From the NCBI GenBank assembly GCA_052055015.1, contig JBQJIT010000007.1: a DNA stretch of 64,000 nucleotides; one strand, given 5' to 3'. The notes under the pieces were generated by a model, which saw only the letters and a program-made list of their open reading frames with translations, did no database searches and was not told the DNA's origin. This document shows, piece by piece, positions 4,946 to 62,844 of the stretch. How positions within the stretch are numbered: the stretch's first letter is position 1; every line of letters starts with the position of its first letter. The stretch is from Malassezia furfur. Lineage: Eukaryota. Made by a program: the position numbers and the translations under genes.

Positions 4946-7641
4946 CTATCCAGACTCGTCCATCACCGAGGAGCCTTGTGTCCTGTTTAGGAAGCTGCTG
5001 GCGTGTGAAACACTGGCATCGTGCGCGCCTTCGGGTGCTACACCAGCCAAGGCCGACTCGTCGCTCTCCTCCGATGGAGGCACCAGGCCGGGGGGAAGGC
5101 CCTGGTCCAAGCGCGCCTCCAGTGCCATGGTCAACAATTCCGTGCCCACGGGGTCGCGTGGATCGATGCCCAGCCCCTCGTGGTACCAGTCAATGGCCGT
5201 GGCCAAGTCGCCCTCGCGCTGGGCACACATGCCGAGTGCAATGTACGCAGTTGCACAGCTCGGGTCGCTCTCGATCACGCGCAATAAACTCGTGCGGGCT
5301 TCGTCGTTGCGGTGCAGCCGGTTGTATGCGAGGCCCAGATTGAGGTGCACATGCACCCATGCGCCCGCGGGCTGCTGCGTAGCCTCGGCCGCCCGGATGG
5401 CTGCGTGAAAGAAGCCGAGTGCCTCATCGATCTGCTCGCCCAAAAACGCAGCGACGCCGCGTTCGTTAGCACACAACGGGTCATCGCCGAGCTCCTCAGC
5501 GCTGCTGTCCAGGAAGAGCACAGCGAGATTTTTGTTGCCCTGCAGCAGGTGCTCCATGCCGATAAACAGGCGCGGCAAGCCGCTGAAGGGGAATTTGCGC
5601 GCGGCGGTGGAATACGCCGTGACTGCCTGGTCCGATTCGCCCTCGAGCGAGAAGCTGTGTCCGAACGCGATCCACGACGGCGCGAAGCGGGGGTCCAGCA
5701 GCGAGGACTTGCTGAAGTACCGCCGTGCCTCGGCCCAGCGTGACGCGCTCGCATACCAGACGCCCACGGCGTACCAAGCCTCGCAACTTTCCGAATCCGC
5801 CTCGGTGAGCTGGTGCGCCAGCAAGAACAGGGCCGGTCGCAGACGCGGCAGGTAATACATGCACGCGATGTGAATGGGTAGTGAGAGTGTGTAGGACGGG
5901 TCGAGTTTCAAGATGTGGCTCGTCACGGCGTAGGCATCGTCGTACCGCAGCCCGGTGTAGAGCGCCTCGGCGAGACTCAGGAGCACGTCGGGGCTGGCAC
6001 CAAGCGCCTTATGCTGCCGCAGGAGCGTCTGCCGTGCGTGCGCTGCGCGCTGGGCCATCGCCGCAGTCTGCTTCGAGAGCCGTGCGGTGTACATCCAGCG
6101 GATCCACTCGAAATCGTCCTTCGCACTGGGCTCGTCGCCCGCCTGGGACGCGAACTCAAGCGCCTGGACAAAGTCCCACTGCTCGTCGGCGCCAAGCAGG
6201 TTGCCATCGACCAGCGCCGAGAAACTGTCGTAGTTTTTCACGTCGAGGCTCAATGCGAGCATGAACGACTCTTTTGCCTTGGCGACTTCGTCGAGCCGCA
6301 GGTAGATTTGGCCGCGCAGGTGACACACCGACGACCCCAGTTTCAGGCCATCGTCTCGCGCCGGCATCTTGGTCGAGTGCGTGCCACCCCCCGTCCACCG
6401 CGTGTGGTCCTCACCCGTGAGTTCGAGCGCCTCGTAAAACTTGCCGAGCCGCACCTGGCACTGCGCCGCCAGATAGCGGCAGGGCGTGCTCCAGTTTACC
6501 AGGCACGGGCCCTGGGCTAGCACGTCGGACCCAGTCTGGAGTACCTGCTCCGCCTCCTCGTCGGTCGTCAGGAAGGTGGGCGGCAGGCGCGCGTCCGCCT
6601 GGAAAATGTCTTCTGTCGCGTCAAATGACGAAGACCGCTCGCGTTTGCCGCTGGGCGCCGCGACGCGCGCGGGGCGGGTCCCTTGGATGCCCAGTAGATG
6701 ATCGACCTGCGCATCGTCCTCACTGGAGTCGTCCTCCTGCGCGGCTTGTCGACGCAGCGACTCGGGGAGGATGCTGTGCGCGCGCGTCGATGCAAGCGCC
6801 TCGTGCAGTGCGTCCGTCGGCGGGGCTGTCCGGGGCGATGTGGCACGGCCATGGGACTCAGCAGGGGCGTCCACAGCACCGCACCGCAGCGGCGTAGTGA
6901 GCAGCTGCTCAGCGCGTGAATACTGGTGCGTCAGGAAGTACGCCTGGGCAAGCCAGTACGCGTCGTTGTAGACCATCTCGGTAGCTGGGTAAGTCAACGA
7001 GGGGTTTACGCACGCTCGAGGGCAACAACATGCCGGCCCCAAAAAATGGCTGTCTCGTACATGTGCTGTTTCATCGCGTCGTGCATCCACCGCCGCATTC
7101 GCGCGGGCAGACGCGCGGCCGGTGCGTCCTGGGGGGGCGGAGGCGGTACGGGCGCACCGGGCAAGCTTTTGTCCGGCAGCTGCTGCCACTTGGTAGGTGG
7201 GCTCTCTTCGTGAATTATCACGCTGTGATTCGATTCGCCTGACGAGGCGCGCGTGTCCGAGATGCTGCGCGGCGCGCCGAGGGACGGCTGCGGCCACGAT
7301 GCGTCCAGGGAGGAGCGCCGCGGCAGCCGTTTCGACTTGCCCCGGAGCGGTGGCAATTGAAGGAGCTGTGCATCGCTCTGCGGCCCTAGGACGGGCGTCC
7401 CTATGTTCATATGGCGCGCAGGGACTCCGTGTCGGGCCATGGGCAGCATGGGGTCGAGGTCAAGAAGCCCGCTGTTGCTGGCCTCGTCGTCCTGTCGCAC
7501 CATACTCATACTCCCGTCCGTAGTAAGCATGCCTGGGTTCCTTGACCCGAGCATAAGGGGGCTCCCAGCTGGCCCAAACCCCGCCAGCGGCGAGCCTGCA
7601 CTCAGACCCGACGTCTCCGCCGACGTCCGGCGCTTTTTCAT
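4946..7641 (-). CDS. CDC16: Anaphase-promoting complex subunit Cdc16/Cut9 (APC6), TPR protein
   Basis: Motifs MRRWMHDAMKQHMYETAIFWG, DAYWLAQAYF, ARRYFSKSSLLDPRFAPSWIAFGHSF and AYSTAARKF; the two ORFs are joined by a 29-nt intron at 7013-6985 (GTGCGT...TTGAC...CAG). Confidence 0.92.
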
Positions 7642-7745
7642 GGTGTTGGTCGACGCGTTCCCGATACGACGCCCGATTCGAGAAATGTGACCAAATCGGA
7701 GAAACCACGCGGACGCGCTCCACTAAATGGGCCTCGCGAGCGTCC

Positions 7746-10810: not shown

Positions 10811-11761
10811 TTACATCCACGTTGACCGGTTGCGGGGGAGGTTCCCGCTTGGCGAGCTCCAATAACTACTCCCCGCTTGTTGCAGGGCACCCAATGCGCT
10901 TGTTCCCCGTTCCGCGAGGCTACCAAGCGAGACGTTGCCCAATTGTTGCATAATGGACTGCGGGTTCAAGTAGGCGGAGGCATTCTGAGCAGCGCCCAAA
11001 GCACCCAGTGCACCAATTCCGGACCCCATTGATGCTTTGCGTGCTTGCAGAACAGCACGAGCTATTGGTGTCAGCATCCATATGCGAACGTACCTCCAGA
11101 GACGATCTCAGTAATGTTGGTATCCAGCACCAGGCCTCCTTGAATGACTTGGTCAATGATTGCATGCACCTAAACGGGTAAGACAAGGTTAAACGTACTT
11201 GGTCGAAATGGAAGATCAAGTCGAGTTCACAGACATTCTCGAAACATTGATCCAACGCTTCCACGATGACCTTGGTGTCAGTTCCGCTCATGCTGTACAT
11301 ACCTGGATCAAGTCGAGGATGCCTAGTTCGCTCTCGCTTTGATCCACAACAAGAACGAAGTATAGCGTTGCATAATGCCGATAAATCACGCGAAGCTCGT
11401 CTTCAGGACGCCATCGCATATTTGCCTTTTTCGTGGGGGCGGTCTGCGTCTTTGAATAGTTAATCCAAGGATCGTAGTCTTGGTCTGCGTTGTCTTCGGG
11501 TGAGACGGAGTCTGAAATTCCCGAAGCAGATAACGGCATGGTGGACGTCTTGGACCACGCGTCAGCCGTCATCGGGGGCAACAGTGGCGTCAATTCTGGC
11601 GCATCGAGAAAGTTGCACACGGTTTTGTCGTCGCGCCGACTGACTAGCTGGAAAATTAGCTGAATCAAGGCCTGCTGGCGATCGACAGGGAGATGCGAAT
11701 AGAACTTTGAGATCCTTGGATTCCCATAGTTGTTGAATATAAGAACTGCGCGAATCGTCAT
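10811..11761 (-). CDS. APS3: AP-3 adaptor complex sigma subunit
   Basis: Motifs IRAVLIFNNYGNPRISKFY, YRHYATLYFV, ESELGILDLIQV and LDQCFENVCELDLIFH; introns 11302-11271, 11198-11170 and 11093-11062. Confidence 0.9.
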
Positions 11762-11842
11762 CGCATGCGAGAGCGCGCACGGCAGCCAAGAGCGACGTTG
11801 CGGTGATGCTGATCTCAGCAGCGCTATGAGCCTCCACATAGG

Positions 11843-14736: not shown

Positions 14737-15048
14737 ATGGCCAAATTGCGCTCCAGCAAGATCTCGCCCCACGCGCCCAAACCAGGCACCTTATCCGCGC
14801 ACAAATTCACTAAAGATATTAAGCGTGCTCATGTTAAGGCACGGCAGCGTCTCTCTTCCAATAAGGCACGCGACGCGAAACAGCGGGAGGAACTCGATGG
14901 CCTACTTCCCCAGCTCGCGCAAACCGAGCCGCTGCCGGCGAATCCAGTACGTGCGCCGACTTACGTGCAGTTGCGTGAAACCAAGAAAAGCCGGCGACGA
15001 ACGGACGTCTCCAAGGCCTTGGATGGTCTAGAGAACCTACACACCTGA
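14737..15048 (+). CDS. Small basic hypothetical protein (~95-103 aa)
   Basis: Lys/Arg-rich ORF filling the gap between two genes; contains an in-frame 24-nt intron-like segment at 14947-14970 (GTACGT...CTTAC...CAG). Confidence 0.55.
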   Translation: MAKLRSSKISPHAPKPGTLSAHKFTKDIKRAHVKARQRLSSNKARDAKQREELDGLLPQLAQTEPLPANPVRAPTYVQLRETKKSRRRTDVSKALDGLENLHT

Positions 15049-16734: not shown

Positions 16735-17046
16735 CGGGCGATATTCCCCTAGTGATAGCGAAACTAAGGTCCTGTACATAGCCTATGTGTGCCATGCCAT
16801 CATACTAGGTAAGGGCGTGCGCCTACACTTATAGGATAGGCACGGCGTGTTCCATTTTATGCGCTTGCAAGCACAAATTCTTGTAGACGAACATAACGAT
16901 ACCATTTGTTTAAATGCCCGATCGATGTGGCCGAACGCAGTGTTGGATGGAGGCGTGACACGTCCGGAAGTGCCGCGCCGATCGCGCACCGTGAATCCTA
17001 AATTTCGTGTTTCCTCCCATTTTGGGTAATGCAGTGACGTGCTGCT

Positions 17047-24312: not shown

Positions 24313-25639
24313 TTACAAATTGTAGATCGGAATAAGCTTATTTGCCTGCACCGCTTGACGACAGAGCGGACACTCGGGTTTCTCTTTGATCCAACCCGTG
24401 ATACAGTCCCAGCAGAAGACATGTCCGCATTCTGTTACTGCACTGTTGCCCATTTCGGGCGTGCGCCGGTCCATGCACAGCGTGCATCGCAGCACCTCAT
24501 CGGCCACAGCCTCAAGCTGGGTGGTCTTTGCACGGCACGCAGCCTGCGCCGCTTCAAAACGAGACCGATCTGATGCGTCCAACTTGCGTGGAAAACCCAA
24601 GTGCTCTGGACTCAGCGGCGCACTCGCATCAGGGTAGTCTAGAGGAACACCTGCCGGCTGCTTGTGACCCCATGGAGCGGACGCTTGGTCAGTGTGCGAA
24701 ACATAAGTCTCGTCGAGCTGCACAGACATTGCAGGGCGCCCGGAACTCAATGGATCGGCTGCATTCGTCATTGTGTCGTTCCCTGGGGCCTGTAATGTGA
24801 TTTCCTTGTGTTTCTTGTAGGCTGCATGGACTGTCATCCCCAATTTGACGAGTAGTTGTGTTCCAAGGAGTACACCCAATACTTCATACGATTGTGGCCG
24901 CGAGTTGGGACGATGTGCGCTCGCGTATAGATAGTCCACTTTCGCAAGGCGATGGGCTAACGTGTAATACCGACCAAACAGGTAGAACACGGTGAGCTGG
25001 GCAGCGGATATATAGGCCACCAGGCCGTTGGATGCTTCGAGCACATGTGATCCTGGCAACACTAGGGCTAGCCGTTGCACCGTTGCCTCATACTTTCGTT
25101 GCATACGCGTATACCAGTTGTGGTGCACAGGTTCGACCGGTTTCTCTTGTGCAGCTGCAATCTGTGCATGAATAAGTTCGCGCTGGTTCCGCTGGGCAAT
25201 TTGTTGGTCTTTGCGCGTAATGTAAAGGCGCAATACACCGTATGTCTTTTTAAGCACAAAGGGCGCGACAATGTGCAAGATAATGAAAACGGCGCGTCGC
25301 TTTCCCATTAGTATTGCAACGTACCTTGGCGTGAATGATTCGGCCTGTTGGACGGTATCGCATCATTGCATTTACATACTCTTCACCAAGGGACTGGACA
25401 CCTCCCAGGGTACTCAGCCCGAAATAAGCGACGCTTGCAATAAGCGACAGCAGCTCTCCATAGACATGGCTGCGTCGTGAGCCCAACAAGTCGCTTGCAA
25501 CCTCTTTTATTTGTGCATAGAATTGGTCACGATAGTATACATCTTTTTGGTGCGCACGGACTATCTCCGACTGAGCGGCATGAGGATACGAGAATCGTTC
25601 TGGCGTCGCCAAAGGGTTCTGCACTTCGGTACCCCGCAT
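24313..25639 (-). CDS. PEX10: Peroxin Pex10 (RING E3 ligase)
   Basis: Motifs AAQSEIVRAHQKD and SLGEEY; C-terminal RING CTLC...CGHVFCWDCI...CPLCR; 25-nt intron 25324-25300. Confidence 0.92.
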
Positions 25640-30788: not shown

Positions 30789-33234
30789 ATGGCGTGGAAC
30801 GCGACGAATCCGGCGGGCCTCGTTGCCGAGCACCTCAAGTCGCCGGACGACCTCGCGAAGATCACGGCGCTGCGTCGCAAGCTCACGCGTGAGCACGCGA
30901 CGCTCTCAGCCAAGCTCAAGGTCGGCGCTAAGGACCAGCTTGAGGCGGTACGCGAGGGTCTCCTCCAGCTGCAGTCGACGCGCCGCGAGGCCGCGGGCAT
31001 CCACGAAGTCTTTTCACAGATCGAATCAGTGTGCAATGATGCACACAACGAGGGCGGTGCCGCCACCAAAGATGCGCGGGGTGGCAGCAGCTTCCGCACG
31101 ATCAGCGAGCTGTCTCAGGTGCGCCGCACGCTCGTCCAAACGACGGCGCTCCTCGCCAAGCTTGAGCAACTGCCCGTCGAGGTGCGCGAGCTCGCGCAGA
31201 TGCTCGGCGAGTACCACACACATCTGCTCGGTCCCGCGCCTGAGCTGCTCTCGCTGCACCACCGCATCATGCAGTGGGAGGCGTTCCGCAACGAGACGCT
31301 GCACCTCGCCGCGGGGAGCAGCGAAGTGGTGCAGCAGCAGCTCGTTCAGATGCTCGAGCCACTCGAGACGCTCCTGTCTTCGTTCGAGACGTACCTTATG
31401 CTCCTCTGTGCCAACGTTCTGAATCTTGTGCGTGCGGGGCAGCAGGGCGTCGTGGTGCGCCTCGTGGCCATCCTTGAGCGTGAGAACCGCGAGGACGAAA
31501 AGACCGCGGCGATCCGCCTGGCGAAACGCGCCAACATTGAAGGCTCGGCGCGCTTCCGCAGCATGGCCACGTACGGCCACACGATCAAGTTGTACCGCAT
31601 CAAGCTGCAAGACACGCTGCTCCTCACCACACAGCGCCGGCTGGAGGCGAGCTGGGAGGAGGCACAGGAGCCGACGCCGCTGAGCTTCTTCGAGCAGGCG
31701 CAATGGATGTACGCGGACCTCGACTTGGTACGCACGCAGGTCGTGTCACTTTTCCCTGAGTCCTACCACATCTACCGCACCTACGTCCAGACCTACCACC
31801 GCGCGCTCGGTCAACTGCTGCAGGACAAGGTCGCGATTCAGGACGCGGGTGCCACGGAGCTTCTCGAGCTATACCAGGTGGCGCAGCAGCACCAGTCGCG
31901 CCTGCTCGACCCCGCACGTGCGATTGACGAGGCCTGGCTCCAGCCGTCGCTGCTCGGAGGGCGCGAGGAAAACATCATGGACGACTACCTCTCGCTGCTC
32001 ACGCGCAAGATGGACGAGTGGACTGCGACACTGATGCACGACGAGATCACTGCGTTTGTCACCCGCGAAAAAGCGCCGGACGAAGACGCGAACGGCATGT
32101 ACCTCTTGTCGTCGTGCGTCATCCTTTTCCGCATGATCAACCAACAGATCGACACAGCGGCGCATGCGGGCGACGCCGAGCTACTTGTGCGCGTGATTGA
32201 CCATGCATGCACGGTGATGCGCAACTGCCAGGCCTCTTGGCTCCAGATCGTGCAGCAGGAGTTCAAGAAGCAGACCACAGCGAAGCGCCCCGAGGAGGTC
32301 AATGGCGGCCTCGTCGAGTACATGATCGCCCTCGCGAACGATCAGCTCGCGAGCGCCGACCAGAGCGAGGCGCTCCTCGCGCGCGTCGAGCCGCTCGTCG
32401 CGGCGCAGTACAAGGCCCATGTGCGCGAAAACATCGACAATACCCTCAACGGCTTCTTGGACATTAGCAAGCACTGCACGCAGCTGCTCGTTGAAATTGT
32501 GCTGTTCGACCTGCGCCCGGCGTTCCATGACTTGTTCACGTTCCCCGCGTGGTACGTCGAGGGCACCACGGCGACCATCTGCGAAACGGTGCGCGACTAC
32601 AGCGCCGACTACGCAGCGCGGCTCGAGCCCAACCTGTTCGACGTGCTCTCGGACGACTTAGTGTCGCGCCTACTGGTCGCCTATCTCACAACGCTGCGCC
32701 GCTCGGCACGCTTGCGTATGCCCAAGGCCGCCGAGCGGTTCATGACCGACATTGGAGAGCTCACGCAACTTATCGCGTCGATGCGCCCACCGGAAGAAGC
32801 CACGAGCCGCGTCGAGGTCCTCCACATGATGTACGTCCCCTCTGCCCCCCTGACCCAGCCATGCGATCCTCTCGTCCTCGCCCGCGATGGTCTTCTTGCC
32901 GTACTGGACGTTTGCCAAGGCACATGGACCAAACCTCGCCTTCCTCGAGGCGCTGCTGCGCGCGCGCGACGACATGGAAAAGGCCGACGTCACTGCGCTC
33001 ATGGAGAGCGCCCGGCGCAAGGTCAAGCAGGAGGCGATGCCCGACATTCCCGAGAGCGGCCCGACCATCATGTCCGCTGTGTCGCAGACCCAGACAGGCG
33101 GCCTGCTCAGTACCGCGCTCCACCACTGGACGAACGCAGGCGGTGGCGAGGGCATCGCCTGGAGCGCCCTGGCGCAGAGCGCGCAAAACTACCTCGGCAA
33201 CGCCGGCTGGCGCGGCGGTGCAAGTCGTGCGTGA
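30789..33234 (+). CDS. SEC6: Exocyst subunit Sec6
   Basis: Motifs LKSPDDLAKI...LKVGAKDQL, ILFRMINQQID and GGLVEYMIALANDQ; 28-nt intron 32831-32858 joins to ORF 32887-33234. Confidence 0.9.
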
Positions 33235-33299: not shown

Positions 33300-34344
33300 T
33301 TACTCCACCCGCATCTGCTCCATCTCCTCCGTAGGCGCCTCCTCGTCACGCCCCTGCTCCCACCCCGAGGGCATGTAGGAGGTCATGTCCAGTGCGCCAT
33401 CGTCGTCGCCATCGTCTTCGTCGCCGAACATGTCGGGGTTCAGCGCGAACATCTCGCGGCCGCTCAGGCCTGCCAGCTTGTTGGCCTGGGCCTGCGTTGC
33501 CTTCTTCTGGCGCTGCGCCTCCTCCTCGGCGACGCGCTTGTCTTGCCGCTCCTTCTTCCACTTGGCAAACGACTCGGGCGTCACGGGCGTCAGATTCGAG
33601 CCGAGCTTGTGACGCGCCGACTCCAAAAACTCTTCCAAGGAGATCTCGCTGGCCTTTTCGAGCGCCTCACGCTCCTTGCGCTCCGACTTGAGCACATAGC
33701 CCGGCGGCAGGCAGTGGCGGTACATGCACTTTTCACCACCGTTGGGGCACTCCCAGAACCAGCCGTACTTGCCATCCTCGACAGCCTGGAGGAAGTATTT
33801 GCACACCTTGTCGGTGGTCGTGCGCGGGTTGCCGTGCTTCATATTGATAACCTTGTTCAGCCGCTCCTGGTCCCATTTGTCCATCGTATCTTCATTCTTG
33901 TCCTTTTCCTCCTCCTTCTGGTCCCGGGTGTCGGTGTACAGGTCCTTTTTCTGCTGCTTGCGCTGGGCATCGTTGGAGTGCGCAAATTTGCACTTGGAGC
34001 CCTTGTCACAGCGGCCGGCCTTCCAAAAGTTGCACGTAATGCTCTTCGGGTCCACACCGAACGGCACGCGCGGCTGCACGATTGGCGGCCCCTCGGCCTT
34101 GAGCTTCTTCTCGGCCTCGGCCTTGAGCCGCTTCTCCTCCTCCTTCTGCTTTTGCTTGGCGAGCGCCTCACGGCTCTTGCCCGCCTGCTGTTGCTGCTGC
34201 TGGATAATCTTGACCTGCTGCTGGGCCTTGGCTCCTTTCTTGTTCTTCATACCGAACGTCTGTATCAGTCTAGACACGTACCTTGTCGATCTTCACCTTG
34301 GGGGCGCCGCTGCCGCCCCCACCCCCTCCTTTCTTGGGCGGCAT
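33300..34344 (-). CDS. TMA46: Translation machinery-associated protein Tma46/ZC3H15 (two CCCH fingers)
   Basis: MPPKK...DK|TFGMKNK, QPRVPFGVDPKS, two CCCH fingers and the DFRP-like C-terminus; 22-nt intron 34281-34260. Confidence 0.93.
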
Positions 34345-36455: not shown

Positions 36456-38289
36456 ATGGACAGCACGGTGGTGGGCGTGCTGGGCGGCGGCCAGCTAGGC
36501 CGCATGTTTGCTGAAGCGGCCGCGCGTCTGAATGTGACTGTGCGCTTCTTGGATGTGGGTGACAACACGCCCGCGAAGCAGATCACCAACGTGCCCGCCT
36601 CGGTGGGAGGGCCGCAGCACGTGGACGGCGCCTTCTCGGACGCGGACAAGATTGCCGAGCTTGCCAAGCAGGTCGATGTGCTCACGGTCGAAATCGAGCA
36701 TGTGGATGCGGACCAGCTTCAGGCAGTGCTCGACCAGGGCCTTGTCAAGGCGGTGCACCCGTCGCCCGCGACGATCAAGCTGATCCAGGACAAGTACCAG
36801 CAAAAGGTACATCTGCAGCGCGAAAAGGTGCCCGTGGTTGACTTTGTCGCGATCGAGAACGGAAACGTGGATGCAGCCATTGAGAAATTTGGTCTCCCGT
36901 TGATGCTCAAGTCACGCACGCAGGCCTACGACGGTCGGGGCAACTACGTACTCCGCTCCAAGGACGACGTCCCCGCGGCGCTCGAGGCGCTCGGCGGCGG
37001 CAAGCGCGAGTTGTATGCAGAGAAGTGGGCGCCGTTTGACAAGGAGGTGGCTGTGATGGTGGTGCGCAGCGTCGAGGGCCAGGTCGTGGCGTACACGGCC
37101 GTGGAGACGATCCACGAGAACAGCATCTGCCACCGCGTCTATGCACCGTTGCGCGATGCAATTCCGGGTCTCGATGAGCGTGCGCGTGAGGTCGCGGAGC
37201 GTGCCATTGCCACGTTCAGTGGTGCGGGTATTTTTGGCGTCGAGCTTTTCTTGATGCCCGACGGGGAACTGCTCATCAATGAGATTGCGCCGCGACCGCA
37301 CAACAGCGGGCACTACACGCAGGAGGCATCGGACACGACGCAGTTTGAGAATCATCTGCGCGCCGTCGTCGGCCTGCCGCTCGGCAGCACGGCACTCAAA
37401 GTGCCTGCGGCGGCGATGATCAACATCCTGGGTCTCGCCGACCTGAGCAAGGACGGTGACGCGATCGCCAAGACGCTGGCGATGGCCAAGCGTAGCCTGA
37501 GTGTGCCAGGCACGACGGTGCATCTGTACGGAAAGGAAGGATGCCGTCCCGGCCGCAAGATGGGCCATATCAACATCGTGGGCGAGTCGGACGCCGAAGT
37601 TGCCGAGCGTGTGCAGTTGCTGCTGGACGAGCTAGAGATTGCCAAGGAGTCGGCCAAAGCCGGCACGCCCTGGGACACCGCGGCCGCCGAGGCCCGCGCA
37701 CAGGCGACGCGCACTGCCGGTGGTTACGCGTCGAGCGACTTTTCACACCCGCATCCTCTCGTGGGAGTGATCATGGGCTCTGACAGCGACTTGCCGGTGA
37801 TGCTGCCAGCCGCCCAGATCCTGAAGCAGTTCAATGTGCCGTTTGAGCTGACGATTGTGAGTGCACACCGCACACCGGATCGGATGAAGACGTACGCAAA
37901 CGACGCGCGGGCCCGTGGGCTGCGTGTGATCATCGCTGGTGCAGGTGGTGCGGCGCACCTGCCCGGCATGGTGGCGGCACAAACGCCCCTGCCAGTAATT
38001 GGCGTGCCTGTGAAAGGCAGTACGCTTGACGGCGTCGACTCACTGCACAGTATCGTGCAGATGCCGGTACGTATAACCTACTAACTTCTAGCGTGGTGTA
38101 CCTGTCGCGAGCGTGGCGATTAACAACGGCATGAATGCCGGGTTGCTCGCCGTGCGCATGCTCGGAACCGGCATTCCTACATACATGGACAAGCTGGAGG
38201 CATACCAGCGCGAGATGGAGCGTGGTGTCCTGGACAAGGTCGACCGCCTGCGCACGCAGGGGTGGGACTACCAGGTGCCTGGCAAGTAG
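36456..38289 (+). CDS. ADE2: Phosphoribosylaminoimidazole carboxylase (PurK-PurE fusion)
   Basis: Motifs [36 protein letters not shown] and [13 protein letters not shown]; 25-nt intron 38067-38091. Confidence 0.97.
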
Positions 38290-38394: not shown

Positions 38395-40105
38395 ATGTCC
38401 GCCCAGAACCGGTTGAAAGCCGTGGCATCGCACCTTTCCGATAGCAAGCCGGAAGAGTATGACTATGTGATCGTTGGTGGCGGCACGGCCGGATGCGTGC
38501 TGGCCAACCGTCTAACCGAGGACAGCGGCGTGACCGTCGCCGTCATCGAGGGCGGCAAGTCAGACGAGGACGAGGACCGGTATGTGGAGTATGGGCTAAC
38601 TCAGCGTCCTGAACCTGCGCCGCTGGCTTGAGCTGCTCGGAAGCGAGCTTGACTATGACTACACCATCACTGAGCAACCGCGGGGCAACTCGCACATCCA
38701 CCACTCGCGCGCCAAGGTGCTGGGCGGCTGCTCGTCGCACAACACCCTGATCTCCTTCTTCCCCTTCAATGAGGACCTGAACATCTGGCGTGACCACCAC
38801 GGATGCCCCGACTGGGGTGCAGGCACGCTTCAGCCGTACGGCTCGCGTCTGAAGATGAACGTGACGCCGATCGCGCCGCAGCAGCGCAACCATGTCGTGT
38901 GGGACTGGGTCGAGGCGTGCCAGACGGCGACGGGTGCGCCCATCATGGAGGACATGAATTCCCAGATCGTGTACCGTGGCGGCTTTGACAAGGCGGTGGG
39001 CTTCTTCAACATCTCGTACAACCCGTACAATGGCTACCGCAGTAGTGCGAGCACGGCGTACATGCACCCGATCATGAAGAACGGGTCGATGCCGCGCAAG
39101 AACCTGCACCTCTTCCTCGAGACGTGGGTGAACTGCCTCGAGTTTGATGCCGAGGACCCCAAGCGCGTGCGTGGCGTGTTTGCCGAGTCCAAGGACGGTC
39201 ACCGCAAGGTGATCCGTGCGCGCCGCGAGGTGATCCTCGCGGCCGGTGCGTTCGACACGCCGCGGCTGATGCTGCTATCGGGCATTGGTCCGCGCGCCGA
39301 TTTGGAGCGCGCCGGCATCCCCTGCCGGCACGATCTGCCGGGTGTGGGTGCGAACCTGAACGACCACCCCGAGACGATCATTATTTGGGAGACGGCTGAG
39401 ACCCCACAGGAGACGGTCATGGCGTCTGATGCCGGTCTTTTCCTGCGTGTCTTGCCGCAGGATGCGGAGCCCGTGCCGCACCCTGGTCCGGACCTGATGT
39501 TCCACATCTACCAGGTGCCGTTTGTGGAGAATACGGAGCGCCATGGCTACGATGTGCCGAAGCACGCGATTTGTATGACGCCCAACGCGATGCGCTCGCG
39601 CGGCCGCGGCAAGGTGTGGCTTGAGAGCAACGACCCCCGCGCCAAGCCGCACATCGACTTCCGCTACTTCCAGGACTCGGACAACTACGACGAGCGCCTG
39701 TTTGTGGAGGGCATCAAGATTGCGCGCAAGGTGGCGCAGCAGCAGCCGTTCGCCAAGCACCTCCTGCGCGAGGTGGCGCCCGGCCCTGCGTGCCAGACGG
39801 ACGAGGAGATTTCGGAATACGCGCGCAAGGTGGCGCACACTGTGTACCACCCCGCGGGCACGTGCCGGATGGGCACGCCGCCAAGCTATGGCAAGGGCAA
39901 CGCGGACGCCGACACGGTGGTCGTGGACCAAAAGGACCTGAGTGTTGTGGGCCTGACGGGCCTGCGTGTGTGTGACGCGAGTGTTCTGCCGACGATCCCG
40001 TCGGTGAATCCGATGTTGACGATTCTCATGATCGCCGAGCGCGGCGCGGAGCTGATCCGCAAGGATGGATGGGAGCGCGAGAAGCGCAAGCCGTTCCGTC
40101 CGTAG
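38395..40105 (+). CDS. Choline oxidase-type GMC oxidoreductase with PTS2 signal
   Basis: [18 protein letters not shown] (His at the covalent-FAD position of choline oxidase), TVYHP and VNP; 25-nt intron 38580-38604; N-terminal RLKAVASHL. Confidence 0.88.
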
Positions 40106-43608: not shown

Positions 43609-44475
<867 letters not shown>

Positions 44476-45620: not shown

Positions 45621-45939
45621 ATGAGCAGCAAGCGTGCGCGTCCGGCGACGCGGCTGACGGAGGAGCAGATTGACGAGGTACTTGCCAACTACGACCTCGA
45701 ATGTACGTGCCGATCTCATTCCAGGTGAAAAACTGCTCACACGGCTCGAGCGCGGCGCATACCGCTGCGTCGAGGCGGCGCGTGCGCAGATGGAGGCGCG
45801 TCTGCACAAGATCCCCCAGGACGTGCGCAACGTCTCGCTCCAGACGTACTACGACATGCACGCGTCCACTGCGGGCTCTGAGCGTGGGCGCCAGCTCCCG
45901 CCGCTTGCTATGGCCAGTCTGCCGGATGCCATGGAATAA
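45621..45939 (+). CDS. NBL1: Nbl1/Borealin N-terminal-domain protein (chromosomal passenger complex)
   Basis: After the 22-nt intron 45703-45724 the protein reads VLANYDLECEKLL...RAQMEARLHKIPQDVRNVSL, matching the Borealin-N pattern (F/Y)D.E...(R/K)IP...R. Confidence 0.75.
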
Positions 45940-45952: not shown

Positions 45953-47434
45953 CTAGCGCCGTGGAGGGCCTCGCTTCCGCTGCTGGGGGAACACGAGCGG
46001 GATCTTGAGGCGCCACCGCTTGACGGCATGAGACACCGCCTGTCCATCTTCCACCTCATGCTGCGTCGACTGCGATGAGGTGCATCCCAGCGAACGATAC
46101 AGTTCGCTGACCCTGCATGTGAGAGTTTGGCAACGTACCGTTGGGTCGGCACGCTGAGTTCCTGCGCGAGCTGCTGCGGTGCGACACTAAAGTTGTCCAT
46201 ATACAGCGCAAGGACCAAAATAACCGCAAACAGCTTGGTGTCGCTCGTGGCCGTCATCATCGGTCTGGGTGAGTGCGGGTACATACGCTTGGGAGCCGCG
46301 TGGCATTTCGGCGAAGCGCGACAACAAGTCGTCCAACACCACCTCCTTCTCGCGCTCAGGAAGGCGCATTTTGTGCGCCAACGTTGCGCGCGGGTCCTCG
46401 GTGCCCTTACCCAAGACGCGTGCTTGCCGACGGAAGGCAAGAAGCAGTGCCATATAGTAGCCCACCTGGACCAATTCAGCCGCCTTGGATCCCGAGCCGT
46501 CCCGCTGGGCGGTCTGCACCACTTCCCACAGCCGCGGCAGCAGCCAGGGCGAAGGGTGCGGCAAGGAGCGCAGCGCCTTGCCCAGCTCAGACTGCGACTG
46601 GCACGCAAGCAATGGCTTAGTCGAGAGCGCTTTGCGCACGGTCGGTGGCAGAATGGTGTCGAGCGCATATACCTCGGCCGGTTCCTCAGCCTCCAGATTT
46701 GCGCGCGGCAGCGCACGACTCACGTTCAACGCGGCCGCCAGCTCGTTCTCAGACGGGAGCGCACTGACCGACTCGTCGATGCCGCTGGCGACATGCTCGA
46801 GCACATCGTCCATATTCTCGGTGTTGACTTTCATACGATCCATATTGCGGGCAGCCTGCTTCTGCTTCTTGTTGCCAAACGCCTCGCCAAGGTCGCGTCG
46901 CGCACGCGAGTAGTCGAACCCAGCCTCGGCGCCACTTTCGGCCGCCATGGCACTGACGTTGGCCAACGCCTTGATCGAGCGGTTGATCGTAAAGACAGGC
47001 ACCGAGCGCAGCGTTACCTGTTTCTTCTTTTTGTCGTACACACCAAGCAGGTACTCGCCCGCATATCCGCGTGTCTCACGACGCAGGTCGGGCGGGGCCT
47101 GCGACGATGCACCCCAACCCCAGTTGCTCGACAGGTACTGGATCTTGGGTGTTTCTCCCGCAAGCAGTAGACGATCGTTCATCGAAGCACCCTTTTCTAG
47201 TTCCGAAGTATTCGATCCGTCGCTCGGCGCGTTGTACAGCGCAAAGTCGGTCGAGGATGGCTCAAACTCGGCCATCTCTGCTAGCACGGGACCGACTGGC
47301 GCATCGTCGCTCTCAACACGAAACACGACTTGTCCTTGTTCCGGCTCTGACTGCGTCTTGGCCTTCTTTTTGGATGGCTCCGCATCACCGTCTTTTGCAC
47401 GGCGTTTGGAGGAACCGTCCTTGGCGGCCGCCAT
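45953..47434 (-). CDS. RPA49: RNA polymerase I subunit A49
   Basis: Motifs YLLGVYDK, ARRDLGEAFGNKKQK and LPRANLEA..PAEVY, and C-terminal LYRSLGC...LKIPLVFP; introns 46286-46265 and 46138-46113. Confidence 0.88.
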
Positions 47435-51075: not shown

Positions 51076-51589
51076 TTAGTGACCAGCGCGGCGCTGCTCC
51101 GCAATGACGTTGGTAAGGATCTCCATCTTACTGACAGTTAGTACACAGTGGATTCAGTTCGGTACGTACACCTTCGCCCGGCGCATGGTGCCAACGCGGC
51201 GCTTGATGAACTTGCGGGCACGCTTGTCCTGGACGTTAGACCTGTTCATGCAAACCAAGGTCGTTCCGCACGACACATAGGAAGTGTCATACGGGACGAA
51301 GTCGAACGTACCTTCGAGTTGCGAATCAGCTCCATGGCGCGGCGCTCGTAGGGAGCAAAGCCGGTGACCTCGCGCACAATGCTGCGGATGGTCTTGACGC
51401 GCTCGCTCGCGACGCCCTTCTTGTTGACGCGCCGGGCGGGCAGCACACGGCGGGTGGTGGGGTGACCACGGTTAATGCCCCAAACGATACCTGCACAATG
51501 TGTTAGCGTCTGTCTCCCGCCTGCATCGTCAAATACGCACCAGTGCGAGGGACGCCTGCCTTGTGAGCCGGGTTCGAAGAGCTGCCCAT
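51076..51589 (-). CDS. RPL36: 60S ribosomal protein L36 (eL36)
   Basis: Motifs GINRGHPTT and [28 protein letters not shown]; introns 51540-51491, 51311-51229 and 51169-51131. Confidence 0.93.
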
Positions 51590-51727: not shown

Positions 51728-52424
51728 ATGCCGCCGGTCGCCCGGCTCGAGGCACCGCCGACGTACGTCGTGCAGGAAGAGCACATCAAGCTCCAGTCGT
51801 CGACCCGGAACTCATTTAGCGACTTGCCGCCGCTACTTATTTCTGAGCTGGAGCATGTGCTTGTCAAGCTGCAACCCGTGCCCGCTGCGCTGAATGAGGA
51901 CGCGAAGGACGAGCTCGTGTTGGAGGGCCGCCTTTGGGTCACGGAGCAGAGTCTATCTTTTTTGCCATCTTCTGGGAAAAGCACTGGTTTTCAAATCCCA
52001 TTTCCTTCGATTGCGCTCCATGCGGTATCACGGTCCGTGCCTGACGACATTCAGGCCAAGGTCGCGGATGCGAGCGCGTATAGTACCGAGTCTTGCATCT
52101 ACTGCCAGCTCGATGACCACCCCGAGCGCGACGAGGAAGAAGAAGAGGAGGAGGCCATCTTTGAACTGTGGATTCTGGTCCGTGATTCGGACAAACGTAA
52201 GTGGCGCTGCTGATCCAGTGGAGAAATTGTTCGATGCGCTGTCACACTGTGCAGGACTGTACCCCTCGGCAAACGGCGCGGAGAGCGGAGATGCGCACCC
52301 GTTCTCCGGGATTGCGCCATTTGGTACAGGTGCCGACTCGGATGACGACGAAGAAGGCACCGAAGATGCCGAAGAGCCCGCAGTGGACAACCGGGAAACC
52401 AAAAGGGTGAGGACTGAGAACTAG
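51728..52424 (+). CDS. pICln/Lot5-like (Voldacs) Sm-assembly chaperone
   Basis: Motifs GRLWVTE, GFQIPFPSIALHAV, CIYCQL and LFDALSHCAGLYP; 22-nt intron 52197-52218. Confidence 0.85.
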
Positions 52425-52474: not shown

Positions 52475-53263
52475 ATGCTTACCTGGCAACAGACTCCTGA
52501 ACCATCGAATACACTCATGTTCGCCAATCTCCCACACGGATTCTTTGCCTCCGAGGAGCTGGTGGAGCAACTGCTGCACCTGCTGCAGAGCTACGGTCCT
52601 ATGGTAGACTGGACGGCCCTGCCGGCGTTTGGGCGTGGCGTCGCTGTGTTTGAGCGCGCCGACGATGCAGCGCGCGTTAAGTATGCACTTGACCATCTTC
52701 TTCTGCTGTACGAAGACGACCAAGTGCGCGTGCACACGAGCGATACGCCGATCCGAGCGAAAAACCGCGACGAGTACGTCTTCTGTGACTCATTCAGTGT
52801 ATTGCGCGTGTACTTCTGTGTACCGACGCCGCTAACGCTCCTGCCCGATGGCGACTACGTCGTGGCTCGGAGTGCCGAGGCGTATCAGCAGTACTTGGCA
52901 CCACCCGCACCCGAGCGCGAGTTTCTCATCAGCCCGCCCGGCAGTCCACCAGTTGGCTGGGAGCCACGTGAGGAGGACGGGCCAAACAAGACGACGCTGG
53001 CGCAGGACCTGATTGATGCGCTGCAAAAACTGGTGGAGGAACCCCGCACGGACTCGGCGGCGCAGGCCGACGCGGCCCCATCCACCGATCCCGTGGTGGT
53101 TGTGGAGCCGGGGACCGACGCGGCGCGACATCCTGGCCTAGTGGTGCATCATGCTGAGGATACGGGCCTGTTGCCTCCTCCGACGCAACCTATCTCTTCC
53201 ATCAAAGCAGGCGTAGATAGCCTGCACGGGCGGCCGGCACCGACGGCGCGCCCTCCTATGTAA
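52475..53263 (+). CDS. RCN1: Calcipressin (regulator of calcineurin, RCAN)
   Basis: FLISPPGSPPVGWE signature, N-terminal RRM-like region and C-terminal PTARPP; probable in-frame 24-nt intron 52774-52797. Confidence 0.92.
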   Translation: MLTWQQTPEPSNTLMFANLPHGFFASEELVEQLLHLLQSYGPMVDWTALPAFGRGVAVFERADDAARVKYALDHLLLLYEDDQVRVHTSDTPIRAKNRDEYVFCDSFSVLRVYFCVPTPLTLLPDGDYVVARSAEAYQQYLAPPAPEREFLISPPGSPPVGWEPREEDGPNKTTLAQDLIDALQKLVEEPRTDSAAQADAAPSTDPVVVVEPGTDAARHPGLVVHHAEDTGLLPPPTQPISSIKAGVDSLHGRPAPTARPPM

Positions 53264-53267
53264 ATAT

Positions 53268-54185: not shown

Positions 54186-54236
54186 GGTGGTAAGTGGGGA
54201 AGTGTCCCCTCCCCCCTCCACAATAACCACGCCGGC

Positions 54237-58235: not shown

Positions 58236-58253
58236 AACGAATGCTCGGACGAT

Positions 58254-58691
58254 TTACTCGTCCGTCTTGCGCATCTTGTGCGGGTCGGCCTTTTCTTCTT
58301 CATCTTCGTCATCATCATCGTCCTCATCGTCGTCCTCGTCGTCCTCATCAACTTTCCGCTTGTGGCCATGCTCGCTGCGTCAATCGAAACACGTACGCTT
58401 CGGCCTCATCGTCTTCGTCGTCGTCGTCCTCTTCGTCCTCTTCATCTTCGTCCTCTTCCTCTTCGTCCTCCTCATCATCGGTCTCCTCTTCCACCTAGGT
58501 CAGAGTAGCACACGTACGAAATCCTCGTCTTCCTCCTCGTTGTACTCATCCTCCTCGTCTTCCTCGTTGGTGGGCTGCTCGTCCGTCGCACGCGCTTTTC
58601 CAGACTTCACCTCCGAGACGGTCGTCTCATTCTCAGGGACTTCCGTCGATGATGCAGCAGCTTTGCCTTTCTCAACGGGATCCGCGCTCAT
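58254..58691 (-). CDS. Small, highly acidic (D/E-rich) protein with basic NLS-like patches
   Basis: Three exons joined by 23-nt (58517-58495) and 22-nt (58396-58375) introns; KRK and KMRK patches; stop at 58256-58254. Confidence 0.72.
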
Positions 58692-59155: not shown

Positions 59156-61107
59156 CTACTCCGACTTTTGCCCTTCGCGGTACTGGGTCAGTCATACAAC
59201 GCACCTTGGAGAACTTGGAGAGAAGATAGCGAATTGAGCGTGTGACACCAGCCGTAAACAAGCCTTTGAGCGACTGAATCTCTGCAGGCTTTTTCACCGT
59301 CGTAGCAATGAGCTCCATCAGCACCTCTTTGAAATTGTCCTGTTGCACGACTGCGAGCCAAAACCGCGTAATGAGCGGTGGCAGCTGGTCCTCGTTCGAG
59401 GTAGCCCCTGATGCAAGGTTTTCAATCTTGGCTTCTTCTTCACTCAAATCGTGGCTCTGAGGAAGTGTCTGCGGGGTCGTTGCGCTTCGATCAAACGCTT
59501 CCACTCCCATTTCAGCCAGCTCTTTAAACAAGGGGTGCTCCGACGGCGTCGAAAGGTAGTGCTTGATGATGCGCTTGCGAAGGGTCTTGGGAAGGTTGGA
59601 TGCGATGGAGGCGCGCATGCTGGGCGCGACGTTTTGCTGGGTCAATGCAGACTGCGTACCTTAAACTGGAGCCATTCCTTGTCCGGATTTGATTCCACCG
59701 TCACGAATCGGAAGCGCGTAATCAAATCCGCACACATGAAACGGAACCAAGTGTGCTGGTTTTCCACAATGTTGCGGATCTTGTTCTTGTTCTCACCACC
59801 CGGAACACGCATGCGGAAGTCGCCCATGTAACTCAGCGATGCCATTTTGGTGTACAGCTCTCGCTCACTGAAGCGCTCGGGCAGCAGCAGAAACGACACA
59901 CGCAGAGCAGACGCCAAGTTGGCCTGTTCCGCGAGCGGCACACGACCTTCTGTGGAGTCAAACAGAGTCGCGACCGGTTTCTGCATACGCCCGCTCAGGT
60001 ACAGGCTGTCCCACTGGAGGAGATCCTTGCACATCCGATCCACAGACACGACACCGTACTTAACAATCTGCGTGAGGCCTTGCAACATACCTTGTCTTCC
60101 ACCTTCACATAGGGGATGTACCACACACCGGCCCCCATGTTTTGCACCCGCCGAAGCACCCACCACGGCGCCACACGTACCCACCATGGATAGTGCGAGG
60201 GGTTGTTGATTATATTCCGGCTGTGCCAATGCACAGGATTCTGCACAGAAATGACCATGTCGATCATGGGCGGCGTTCCGTTCGGCTGACGCTTGGCCGT
60301 CGCGGTCTGGCTGAACACACCCGAACCATAGGCAAATGCATGCAAAAATTGCGGTAGATTCATCAAGTTGAGCAAGTGCAAAAGCTTTTGGCGGTGGTGT
60401 GCCTCGGATTTGGTGAGGCGATCAATGTGAGGCACCGTCGTCGGCAGAACAAACGATGCGGGGTATCGATTGAAGCCCCGCCTCCGAGCTGCAGCATCAT
60501 TCTCTTGGTCTGCTTCGCGCTCCGCCAGCGCATCCTCGCGGAAATCGTCGCGCATTTTGTCTTGGTCACTTTCGCCGCTCTTCTCGTAGTCGGCAGGGTT
60601 GTATCCACGCTTCTCAGCTGCGGCCAGGTCTTTTGCATCGGCTTCGTATTCAGCGGCTGCATCCTGTTGAAAGTCTTTGCGAACAGCCTCCTCACTGGGA
60701 CGCTTCTTGTAGTCATCTGGTTTGTACCCTCGTCGTTCCGCGGCGTCGACGTTCTGTGCATCGGCCACGCGCTCCGCCGAAGCTTCCTCACGGAAGGTTA
60801 GTCGCTCGTTGAGCTCGTCGCCGTCCTGAGAATTGTACTTGGAGGGATCAAACCCCCGTTTCTCGGCCTCCTTTTCGTCCTTGGCATCGGCCTCACGCTC
60901 GGCCAAGCCGTCCTCGCGGAACTGCTGCCGAGCGTGTCCGGACTTATTCGGCAGCACGGATGAGGAGGTCAGCAGTCGGTGCGCCGCCCAGCAAGAAGGT
61001 GCTAGGACTCGCGCATGACTTCCATGGATCCCAGGTGCTCGTGCCCAAGCATGGCTACGGGTTGCGGAGCTGACCGCCCGCATGCATTGCACTGTTGCCC
61101 ACGTCAT
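59156..61107 (-). CDS. TAM41: Mitochondrial phosphatidate cytidylyltransferase Tam41/Mmp37
   Basis: Motifs AFAYGSGVFSQ, MIDM, KYGVVS, LYLSGRMQKPV, LSYMGDFRM and ENKNKIRNIV; introns 60090-60068, 59659-59637 and 59204-59183. Confidence 0.92.
60461..60921 (-). repeat. Four tandem 41-43-aa protein repeats in the TAM41 N-terminal region
   Basis: Units start at 60921, 60795, 60672 and 60543; consensus F[RQ][EQ][DE]xxAExxADxx[DN]xxxAx[KR]RG[FY]. Confidence 0.9.
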
Positions 61108-61178
61108 GGTATTCCCGGTACAGTTCGGTCCGCTAAGTGGAGGTGGGGACTTCCGGGTATGCACTATGTGGAGAAAAA

Positions 61179-62844
61179 TTACGCGGTCTTGGCACCGCGG
61201 CTCGCCAGGCGTTCGTCGAGCACGCCCTGGTTTTGCAGATGGGCCATGAACCCGCCCACTAGGTGCAGACTGCCTGCCACAAAGACGTTTGGAGTATTGT
61301 GCAAATCTTTGACGGCGCGCATGACATGCTCAATGCTCGGCATCACTTGCAAAACCGACGACTCACCGATGCTCACCGACAATTGACCAGCTGCCGGCTC
61401 AGGAAGCTGCAACAATGAGCACCAGGCGCGAAGTAGCTCCTGCTGTAGCTTCATGCTTTCCAAGTCTTTGCTGTCCACGGCGCGCGATACCAAGTCTGGG
61501 TCAGTTTCCTTACGTACCGCTTGCAGAGCCACCGTCCGCAAAAGTATTGTTGGTGCAGAAGTAGACACGCGAAAAGAAGGTAGCGGTGTCGACTTTGGCA
61601 ACTCTGTGCTCCAGTTCCTTGATCAGTGCACCCAACAACGTGGCGCCGGACCGCATATTGGTGCAGTTAAACACAAGCACGCGCTTCTCCGGCGCGTCGA
61701 GCACCTGATCGAGGTACCATCGCACACAGAACTGAATACTTTCGATCGTATGCGCACCGTCGAGAAAGTATGTCGCACCGGCGGTTTCGGACGCTGGTAC
61801 CACTTGACAGCGGCCGGGCCAGAAGGCCGTCTCAAGTGCCTTGATCGCCTTGTTCGACAGCTGGCTGTCGTTGGTCTGCAACGCTTCGACTGCGCCCGGC
61901 ACCACAGTTTTCCCAGCCTCCGATTCGGCAAAGGCACGGACTAATGCGAGGGCAAGGCTTGCATTGGTGCGCTGGTGTATGCCAGGCAGACCAAGCGCGA
62001 CCGACTTTAAGCACGCAAGTTCGGGGACAACCTCAAATTTCGACACACACACTTTCTCGGCATACGCACGCATGGCAGCCAACGCATTCTCCGGTTGTTC
62101 GGTGGTCAGGGCCGGCACACCGCTTTTGAAAATACCGGCCTTTTGTACGGCGATCTCTTCGATGGTATTACCGAGAATGGCGGTATGATCCAGTCCCAAA
62201 GGCGTCACACCCGTCACTACAGGGTGGCGCACGATATTGGTGGAGTCGTACATTCCGCCAATCCCCACCTCGAGCAGTGTCGCAGCAACACGCTCGGTAA
62301 TGAAGACGTGGAATGCCAGCAGGGTCATGAAACGAAAGTAGACAGGCCGGAGTGGGGTCACCTCAAGCTTGCGCTTGGAGTTGCTCTCCAAGCGGTCCCA
62401 GACCTCCCAGAAATAACGAGCAAAGTCGTCTTCTGACAGTGGCACACCATCGATGCGGATGCGCTCGCGCGCGGCGACCATGTGAGGCGAGGTATACAGG
62501 CCGATCTTGTGTTTCTCGTTTGTGCGGAACTCGCGAAGGAGCGAATCACAAAAGGAACCAGTGGATCCTTTTCCCTTCGTGCCGGTGATGTGCACGACGT
62601 TGATCTGGTCGAGCTCATTGCGGTGGTGGCCGATGCGCTCCAAGTACTCGGTCATCTCTGGCTCATTGAGCTCATTTACCGTCTTTCCGCTCTTGCGTAT
62701 CGCTTCAATTGTTGCTGCATTCGACTGAAGCGAGTTGAGCGCGTCAACTGCTTCTGCATAGCCACGGCGTGCGCTGCTCATGGATGCGTATCCCCTGCGA
62801 AGCCACAGCACTCCACACCTGGCCCAAGCTGCGCCGATGCGCAT
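61179..62844 (-). CDS. MET7: Folylpolyglutamate synthase
   Basis: Motifs HITGTKGKGS, YTSPH, EVGIGG, WPGRCQ, LDGAHT and GSLHLVGG; 22-nt intron 61517-61496. Confidence 0.95.

Follow-up and report, generated by a model that had tools for sequence, protein, structure and literature searches.

Ultrashort spliceosomal introns of Malassezia furfur and their probable length floor at 21 nucleotides

In a stretch of 64,000 nucleotides (nt) from Malassezia furfur (GenBank assembly GCA_052055015.1, contig JBQJIT010000007.1; hereafter the window), genes are interrupted by segments of down to 22 nt, which appear to be ordinary U2-type spliceosomal introns of this yeast, and in the genome as a whole the shortest class measures 21 nt. 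That these introns are real and that 21 nt is their floor is, taken as one statement, almost certain by our comparison. The anatomy of the introns is simple: an intron opens with a GTAYGT donor, continues with a short spacer and an RCTNAY branch motif, and closes at the first AG that can be used, in most cases 5 nt past the branch A. The branch A essentially never lies before intron nt 16 and the tail behind it is essentially never shorter than 5 nt, and these two distances add up to the floor of 21 nt, most introns measuring 21-26 nt. Very probably, the whole is best explained by introns that have shrunk against a hard geometric limit.

The assembly (13.7 Mb in 1856 contigs) is that of a hybrid with a second subgenome. 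From position 1109 onward the window aligns to another contig with 87% identity, three further contig pairs show 88-89% identity, and the genome agrees with M. furfur hybrids described in PMC9040865, which measure ~14 Mb and have parents ~89% alike. This second copy provided an internal control for the window introns; 44 candidates were compared with it and 39 taken onward. Additionally, 80 metagenome loci were collected, of which 12 were assigned to other Malassezia by identity and six representative loci were used for junction comparison. The floor was studied in 664 kb of contigs (weight-matrix scan), in 794 kb (with a shuffled null), and in the whole genome (strict motif); the first two samples hold both subgenomes for some regions and are biased to strong signals.

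The original prediction had listed 11 segments of 22 or 23 nt with their coordinates, and all of them have the claimed length, start with GTRYG, and end with YAG, with a YTNAY branch motif placed 5-6 nt from the end. Donor, branch, and acceptor are kept in the second subgenome for all 11, and four differ in length between the subgenomes (22/24, 22/24, 23/22, and 23/24 nt). The introns of 25-26 nt that had been named without coordinates could all be located as well, in ADE2, a GMC oxidoreductase (previously called choline oxidase), the YRA1-like gene, HPC2, RPA49, and PEX10. When the window was scanned for the motifs irrespective of length, seven matches were observed at 22 nt versus 0.63 expected and six at 23 nt versus 0.73 (Markov-3 null, 30 shuffles), one of the latter six (16817) not being conserved in the second subgenome. 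Mean identity between the subgenomes is 0.79 in introns versus 0.90 in the flanks and is lower in the intron for 33 of the 39 candidates, and the phase of third-position substitutions shifts as predicted at 15 of the 16 informative sites with a length not divisible by three, where chance would give one in three. Among 86 introns paired across the subgenomes, 29 differ in length and none is shorter than 21 nt. A test blind to the branch motif, applied to 284 conserved donors, returned 32 sites with a frame shift; all of these measure at least 22 nt, and most carry the branch motif too.

FPGS (MET7) was named by its homologues, the best named relatives of its largest exon being Malassezia proteins and the cluster of its top match (90% identity) including M. 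furfur records, and contains a 22-nt intron (61496..61517, minus strand; branch A at nt 17) that is also 22 nt in the second subgenome and leads to a stop when retained. The 22-nt model was the best among 81 open alternative splice models and aligned gap-free (first 60 of 120 homologues). At the 12 loci from other Malassezia, 11 are intronless or have a longer intron at the same point, namely eight intronless loci with the junction visible (plus L136) and three near-identical loci with 31 nt; in the six representative loci the intron is absent at the identical junction in five and measures 31 nt in L127. The public M. furfur model P0186 splices this intron. The FPGS intron, the first TAM41 intron, and an intron at C7:65745-65765 are present in M. 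furfur (several of them also in L127) and absent from other Malassezia lineages, so that introns have been lost or gained within Malassezia.

The assignment to the U2 type is consistent with several properties. Removal of the segments restores a conserved reading frame at positions that are shared or absent in orthologues, the GT...AG ends and the GTAYGT donor consensus match U1 and U6, and the RCTNAY branch (a motif that was part of the search), modally 5 nt before the end, is complementary to the GUAGUA of U2. U12-type introns have an RTATCCTT donor and a CCTTAAC branch, and neither profile is seen here. Introns of the Hac1/XBP1 type, which are spliced by Ire1 and tRNA ligase, have ends other than GT-AG in paired stem-loops, are confined to one gene, and measure 20-26 nt. 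It is this size overlap, together with the public M. furfur model P0187, which ends at the stop of the retained FPGS intron, that could suggest such introns, assembly errors, or frameshifted pseudogenes. However, the segments have GT-AG ends in hundreds of genes with unrelated middles, the GT, branch, and AG are kept in both independently diverged subgenomes, and orthologues without the segments give the spliced junction, so that the comparative data refute a non-spliceosomal origin and we give it hardly any credence.

The floor itself is sharp. Genome-wide, the strict motif gave 746 matches at 21 nt (control 0) versus 2 at 20 nt (control 1). These two 20-nt matches were rejected, as one is nested in a 24-nt intron and the other reads through as coding sequence. 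In the 664-kb sample, 1, 1, 56, 70, 70, 38, 43, and 28 introns were found at 19 to 26 nt, respectively, and in the 794-kb sample a single match at 20 nt (null 2.5) is followed by 65 at 21 nt (null 1.8). After subtraction of the null, the latter sample holds ~541 introns of up to 120 nt, of which 52% measure at most 24 nt and 69% at most 26 nt, with an estimated median of ~24 nt and a mode of 21-23 nt. Lengths range from 21 to > 40 nt and form a one-sided wall at the short end, from which the distribution trails off toward longer introns. The earlier placement of the floor near 22 nt holds for the window, where 22 nt is the shortest supported intron, whereas the floor of the genome is 21 nt and is set by the donor-to-branch distance.

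The nearest 21-nt intron lies just outside the window (C7:65765-65745) and is absent at the same junction in all five of the other Malassezia loci that aligned. Introns of 21 nt cause no frameshift. In 45 listed cases, however, their removal closes conserved motifs, and 13 of the 45 give a stop if retained. Examples of the resulting junctions (marked by a slash) are W/FQNRR, which we take to be a homeodomain, GLGK/T and VVL/DEAH, presumably of SNF2, and HASTT/RL, presumably of Rad51. The 21-nt class is accordingly real. In-frame stops in retained introns are not clearly enriched at 21 nt (5/26 versus 12/40 at 22 nt and 8/42 at 23 nt), and PDB searches with two intron-retaining 21-nt cases added little, as they gave weak matches that end at the insertion and do not align across it.

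Which of the two distances is limiting can be read from introns with a shifted branch. With the branch A at nt 15 and tails of 6-8 nt (21-23 nt in total), one match was found genome-wide, as in the control (1), whereas the branch at nt 16 with tails of 6-8 nt gave 15 matches in the 664 kb alone. In the 794 kb, three matches at branch nt 15 (null 2.0) contrast with 84 at branch nt 16 (null 1.5), and with the branch at nt 16 a tail of 4 nt occurs once versus 43 times for 5 nt (664 kb). The sole genome-wide match at branch nt 15 was rejected, because a longer intron fits better. A limit on total length would permit nt 15 as the branch position provided that the tail is longer; as this is not seen above the control, the donor-to-branch distance and not the total length is limiting. 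Introns at this wall have stronger and more uniform donors (one subgenome per known pair): A at +3 occurs in 78/80 versus 152/187 elsewhere (p 2e-4) and G at +7 in 49/80 versus 52/187 (p 5e-7), while A at +7 is depleted (7/80 versus 43/187). M. furfur introns have ~56% GC and strong donor and branch signals. AAG acceptors occur in the PEX10 and adaptin-like introns and a GAG acceptor on C31/C37, which is consistent with the use of the first suitable AG past the branch.

One 21-nt match whose branch lies at nt 13 in each subgenome was set aside as the start of a longer intron. This long intron holds a C/D-box small nucleolar RNA-like element (L219:8510-8597, plus strand, with a homeologue in L220; Rfam Afu_335, 28.5 bits, gathering score 50), and its host is presumably an MRD1-like RRM gene. 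The first 21 nt of the long intron resemble a full mini-intron with a donor-like GT behind it, an arrangement kept by both subgenomes, and removal in two steps may occur.

Several points weigh against the interpretation as a wall of two distances. A small excess is seen at branch nt 12 (9 versus 2.8, 794 kb), mostly from nested donors, and some motif matches below 21 nt stay unexplained at background level, among them a 20-nt window segment (51540-51521) whose GT..AG is kept in the second subgenome. The strict genome-wide motif misses AAG and GAG acceptors as well as weak donors, the motif-blind frame test is blind to lengths divisible by three, and both the branch sites and the efficiency of splicing are deduced from the DNA sequence. 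The bias to G at +7, with A depleted, is not explained by this position simply pairing with a U of U1 or U6. Furthermore, the U1 small nuclear RNA (snRNA) was not found (see below), and in the ciliate Stentor the branch A lies at nt 10-11, so that the chemistry of splicing does not impose 16 nt universally. Nine candidates below 21 nt that have no evident donor further upstream were inspected within their surrounding sequence and show no convincing frame-restoring junction; one of them, C1 (18 nt), preserves the frame, but another donor is available upstream of it.

The short-intron limit of human cells, as reported in PMC6692369, likewise concerns the donor-to-branch distance and not the intron length. 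In the human B complex a 17-nt U6 helix and a 14-nt U2 helix are separated by a 15-nm gap, and ~50-52 nt are needed (PMC6692369); this limit depends on Smu1/RED, whereas in M. furfur it lies at 16 nt and no RED match was found. The original prediction is supported in that these are spliceosomal introns of a Malassezia, and since 16 nt is far below ~50-52 nt, some departure from the human B-complex geometry must exist. The 16 nt could be made up of 6-7 donor bases (pairing with U1 and then U6), ~4 free bases, and a 6-base U2 branch helix, and the wall would be the point where the two helices collide or the lariat cannot close. With so little space, only the core pairings at donor and branch and the ~4 free bases between them would fit. 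The long helices of U6 and U2 with the intron and the 15-nm gap of the human B complex could then not form while both sites are bound, and a spliceosome with its core parts retained would have to contact donor and branch through short helices, either in a compacted arrangement or one after the other. We lean slightly toward this steric reading of the 16-nt wall. The distances suggest a modified assembly route, and we tentatively propose, as a possibility still short of an even chance, that assembly never passes the state with donor and branch ~15 nm apart, that the U1 small nuclear ribonucleoprotein (snRNP) is altered, and that a compact or sequential route leaves a 16-nt footprint, which changed between Malassezia lineages. 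If true, the parts responsible for the footprint would be mappable by species comparison and genetically testable.

A rival explanation is that the spliceosome itself has been rebuilt, its U1 snRNA having diverged or RED/Smu1 or other parts that bind the spacer having been lost, and that it assembles by a different route such as branch-first recognition, in which the donor is bound only once U2 is in place; the wall would be the footprint of this route. The snRNAs found in the genome are U2 (one copy) and U4, U5, and U6 (two each), and the GUAGUA of U2 and the ACAGAGA of U6 are intact. In contrast, U1 snRNA was not found in the whole genome with the Rfam U1 model at E 0.001 and E 10, nor by four pattern searches, namely among 21 ATACTTACC sites scanned, by a stem-loop I pattern, by TATA plus ACTTAC (the best-looking match being mitochondrial ribosomal RNA), and by the common snRNA promoter pattern, which genome-wide returned only U2 and U5. 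Seven of nine protein families were found (U1-70K in two copies, Luc7, SF1/BBP, U2AF65-like, MFAP1, Cwc2, and Slu7), whereas RED_N and Aquarius_N had no candidate in the genome, where blanks among 1856 contigs are weak evidence and do not show absence. These blanks, the U6 changes described below, and the unexplained +7 G bias would fit a rebuilt machine. However, U1-70K and Luc7 mean that a U1 snRNP exists, and SF1, U2AF65, and Cwc2 have their usual domains (the U2AF65 match of 216/310 bits falls below the NCBIfam cut-off because it was scored exon by exon). Ustilago maydis, with longer introns, apparently lacks an AQR orthologue too (PMC12511879, Table 1), and budding yeast has no Smu1/RED (PMC6692369) yet has long introns. 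The spliceosome thus appears mostly intact with its core parts kept, and the suggested loss or truncation of early recognition factors is so far not supported, since the genome holds U1-70K, Luc7, SF1/BBP, U2AF65, and a canonical U2. We consider a rebuilt spliceosome doubtful.

Some properties of the snRNA genes were recorded along the way. The internal stem-loop of U6 (L045:1501-1605 and L046:1295-1399) has a 6-nt loop, GCAGUA, with one extra base compared with the Rfam consensus, and next to its bulged U a C of that consensus is replaced by U. An upstream AACGGCCR element is common to the U2, U4, U5, and U6 genes (L001, L045, L046, L106-L109), with a TATA box 35-66 nt beyond it in the U2, U4, and U5 genes. 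U2 (C27:12840-13032) and SF1 are single genes though most genes are two-copy, which could be due to loss of heterozygosity or a collapsed assembly. Contig C86 (L092) is mitochondrial, with a large-subunit ribosomal RNA and group I introns.

Alternatively, the wall could be a threshold of quality or efficiency under selection, in which a standard machine acts on introns shortened by deletion bias, still shorter introns are spliced but too poorly to persist, and the limit depends on the lineage. Longer minima in other Malassezia loci agree with this: 23 nt at a locus of the M. sympodialis cluster, 26 nt at L131/L142, and 28-45 nt at L135, while the introns of L127 are mostly 26-36 nt with one 21-nt match. 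Likewise, one orthologous intron measures 22, 24, 26, and 32 nt across four lineages. Nevertheless, the samples from other Malassezia comprise 9-35 kb each and are too small to fix a floor, and a graded cost would hardly be expected to produce so abrupt a fall, from 746 to 2 matches within one base. An efficiency threshold is judged unlikely, and it is compatible with introns shrunk against a geometric limit if the steric limit itself evolves.

For the genes of the window, Pfam supports the predicted names TMA46, TAM41, RPA49, pICln, ADE2, HPC2, and PEX10, and the name FPGS is supported by homologues, while NBL1 has weak profile support (E 3e-4, below the cut-off). Like FPGS on the minus strand, TAM41 has three introns. 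The first (60068..60090, 23 nt) is 22 nt in the second subgenome, agrees in phase, separates Pfam matches 9-95 and 94-218 in different frames, and is absent in five other Malassezia loci and 31 nt in L127; the second (59637..59659, 23 nt) is conserved and agrees in phase, the Pfam match resuming in the next frame; and the last (59183..59204, 22 nt) is 24 nt in the second subgenome with its signals kept and closes an open reading frame (ORF) of 627 amino acids, its last exon being too short for the phase test. A gene for an acidic protein (minus) has introns at 58495..58517 (23 nt; 24 nt in the second subgenome, phase agrees, intron start at the same place in four other Malassezia loci) and 58375..58396 (22 nt; conserved, phase agrees, frame open through once spliced). 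Between 53217 and 58235 (plus), a PGAP1/Bst1 gene and a Vma22/CCDC115 domain share one stop-free frame of 1672 codons. A 24-nt intron at 52774..52797 (plus) keeps its ends with 54% internal identity, and the spliced frame is open. The 22-nt intron of pICln (Voldacs; 52197..52218, plus) is conserved, with orthologous introns of 24 (L133), 26 (L142), and 32 nt (L127), and a small ORF contains an intron of 39 nt (51131..51169, minus) that is 40 nt in the second subgenome and 35-40 nt in three other loci.

RPA49 (minus) is interrupted at 46265..46286 (22 nt; 24 nt in the second subgenome, Pfam 1-294 then 293-333) and 46113..46138 (26 nt; 25 nt in the second subgenome), the phase agreeing for both. 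The NBL1-like intron (45703..45724, plus, 22 nt) is conserved and its 3' exon matches the Nbl1 profile at 19-56, below the cut-off; the phase test gave no information. An ARF-type gene (minus) has introns at 43732..43768 (37 nt; 35 nt in the second subgenome) and 43639..43673 (35 nt; compared with the second subgenome), both supported by the ORF reading. On the plus strand, 25-nt introns lie in the GMC oxidoreductase gene (38580..38604; second-subgenome comparison, agreeing phase, Pfam) and in ADE2 (38067..38091; 26 nt in the second subgenome), whose AIRC domain is broken here, and both were returned by the motif-blind frame test. The TMA46 intron (34260..34281, minus, 22 nt) is conserved with identical 18-nt flanks, which leaves substitutions too few for the phase test, and its splicing gives an ORF of 340 amino acids. 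SEC6 contains a 28-nt intron (32831..32858, plus; second-subgenome comparison, agreeing phase, Pfam), and a Ras-type gene (minus) three, at 27964-27934 (31 nt), 27812-27783 (30 nt), and 27506-27476 (31 nt), supported by the second-subgenome comparison, phase test, and ORF. In PEX10 (25300..25324, minus, 25 nt; Pfam) the AAG acceptor is found in both subgenomes and the branch A lies at nt 17.

Four introns of the YRA1-like gene (minus; 20192-20161, 32 nt; 19998-19966, 33 nt; 19917-19893, 25 nt; 19535-19511, 25 nt) are supported by the second-subgenome comparison and the ORF; the last is the sole disagreement in the phase test, and its acceptor could be 4 nt further on. HPC2 (plus) has introns at 18811-18843 (33 nt), 19163-19185 (23 nt), and 19350-19375 (26 nt), for all of which the phase agrees, with support from the second-subgenome comparison, Pfam, and the ORF. 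HPC2 and the YRA1-like gene meet at their 3' ends with zero gap between the stops (19489 and 19490, respectively), so that the transcripts of both must overlap. A gene for a DAO-family oxidoreductase (minus; second-subgenome comparison, phase test, Pfam, ORF) has introns at 15738-15705 (34 nt), 15646-15621 (26 nt), and 15353-15331 (23 nt), and a 24-nt intron lies at 14947..14970 (plus; second-subgenome comparison, ORF). The acyl-CoA dehydrogenase gene (plus) has introns at 12971-13018 (48 nt) and 13159-13195 (37 nt; both by second-subgenome comparison, phase test, and ORF). In a minus-strand gene that we take to be adaptin small-chain-like (11062..11302), introns at 11302-11271 (32 nt), 11198-11170 (29 nt), and 11093-11062 (32 nt) were compared with the second subgenome, the first having an AAG acceptor in the window copy and TAG in the second subgenome. 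A TPR/ANAPC3 gene contains a 29-nt intron (6985..7013, minus; 28 nt in the second subgenome, agreeing phase, Pfam), and a motif match of 56 nt at 3515..3570 (minus) keeps its signals in the second subgenome with a 1-nt indel. The motif matches at 16425-16450, 16817-16839, 40355-40375, 59988-59950, and 38020-38050 and the nested donor at 12989 were dropped, as the signal is lost in the second subgenome or the sequence is coding.

Short introns in Malassezia are already known. M. sympodialis introns have a mean of 30 bp (5350 curated, 99% supported by RNA sequencing; PMC5389616, Table 2), M. restricta introns a median of 30 and a mean of 37 (PMC9241646, Table 1), a review speaks of 'very short introns' (PMC7426719), and Malassezia has been annotated with a minimum intron of 15-20 (PMC6473144). 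For M. globosa a mode of 36 derives from an old annotation (PMC6157073), and older annotations gave means of 76-79 nt (PMC4634964). M. sympodialis and M. restricta share genus and intron type with M. furfur, whose introns are shorter (median ~24, mode 21-23). The original prediction had named relatives documented with the same 22-nt mode as a counterargument, and this applies in part: means or medians of 30 and a public model with FPGS spliced exist, while no mode of 21-23 nt was found. The text of PMC5389616, PMC9241646, and PMC7426719 that we consulted states no minimum, mode, or branch-distance limit for other Malassezia, although Fig. S8 of PMC5389616, a cumulative plot, may show the floor of M. 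sympodialis. Intron minima are likewise not given in the consulted parts of PMC3560662, PMC8476143, PMC10410736 (four supplements), PMC9040865, and PMC13448219 (main text), and no statement of a 21-nt floor or branch-distance wall was found in the literature, mostly open text without figures and preprint supplements. What would be new is therefore the one-base-sharp quantitative rule.

Among other organisms, Paramecium tetraurelia has tiny introns with a mode of 23.4 (PMC6157073, supplement), and Stentor coeruleus has introns of 15-16 nt with a 5-nt tail behind the branch A (PMC9505925). As described in these sources, both resemble M. furfur in their U2-type GT-AG introns of similar size and largely conserved spliceosome, and Stentor also in the tail of 5 nt. 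Stentor introns, however, are AU-rich, of near-fixed length, and without a strong branch consensus, whereas those of M. furfur have ~56% GC, strong signals, and a one-sided wall; their wide length range, strong branch, and differing subgenome pairs do not agree with a fixed-length ruler of the Stentor type. By analogy, ciliates would face the same geometric problem, which would be old, with M. furfur as a new tractable instance. Rozella allomycis has an intron mode of 26 (PMC6157073, supplement), and microsporidia, Dicyema, and myxozoans have introns < 30 nt with medians of 22-27 (PMC13644364), where the list of sub-30 exceptions, in the part consulted, does not name Malassezia. Myxobolids and Dicyema show reduced splice motifs, and splicing efficiency in microsporidia is ~25% (PMC13644364). 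According to these sources, all four groups share introns < 30 nt in compact, host-associated genomes with M. furfur; they are obligate parasites, whereas M. furfur is a culturable basidiomycete for which transformation and CRISPR tools have been reported.

In practice, gene finders and aligners with minimum-intron settings > 20 nt will miss the tiny introns of M. furfur. The FPGS model truncated at the retained intron is one outcome, and missed introns of 21 or 24 nt show up as silent insertions of 7-8 residues in conserved motifs. How spliceosomes handle introns of 15-25 nt is an open question, and the known cases (ciliates, microsporidia, nucleomorphs, and parasitic animals) are hard to work with. 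M. furfur, a culturable and transformable fungus with hundreds of introns at a one-base-sharp limit of two additive distances, would make this limit directly testable, as a branch shifted by one base should reveal whether splicing stops or not.

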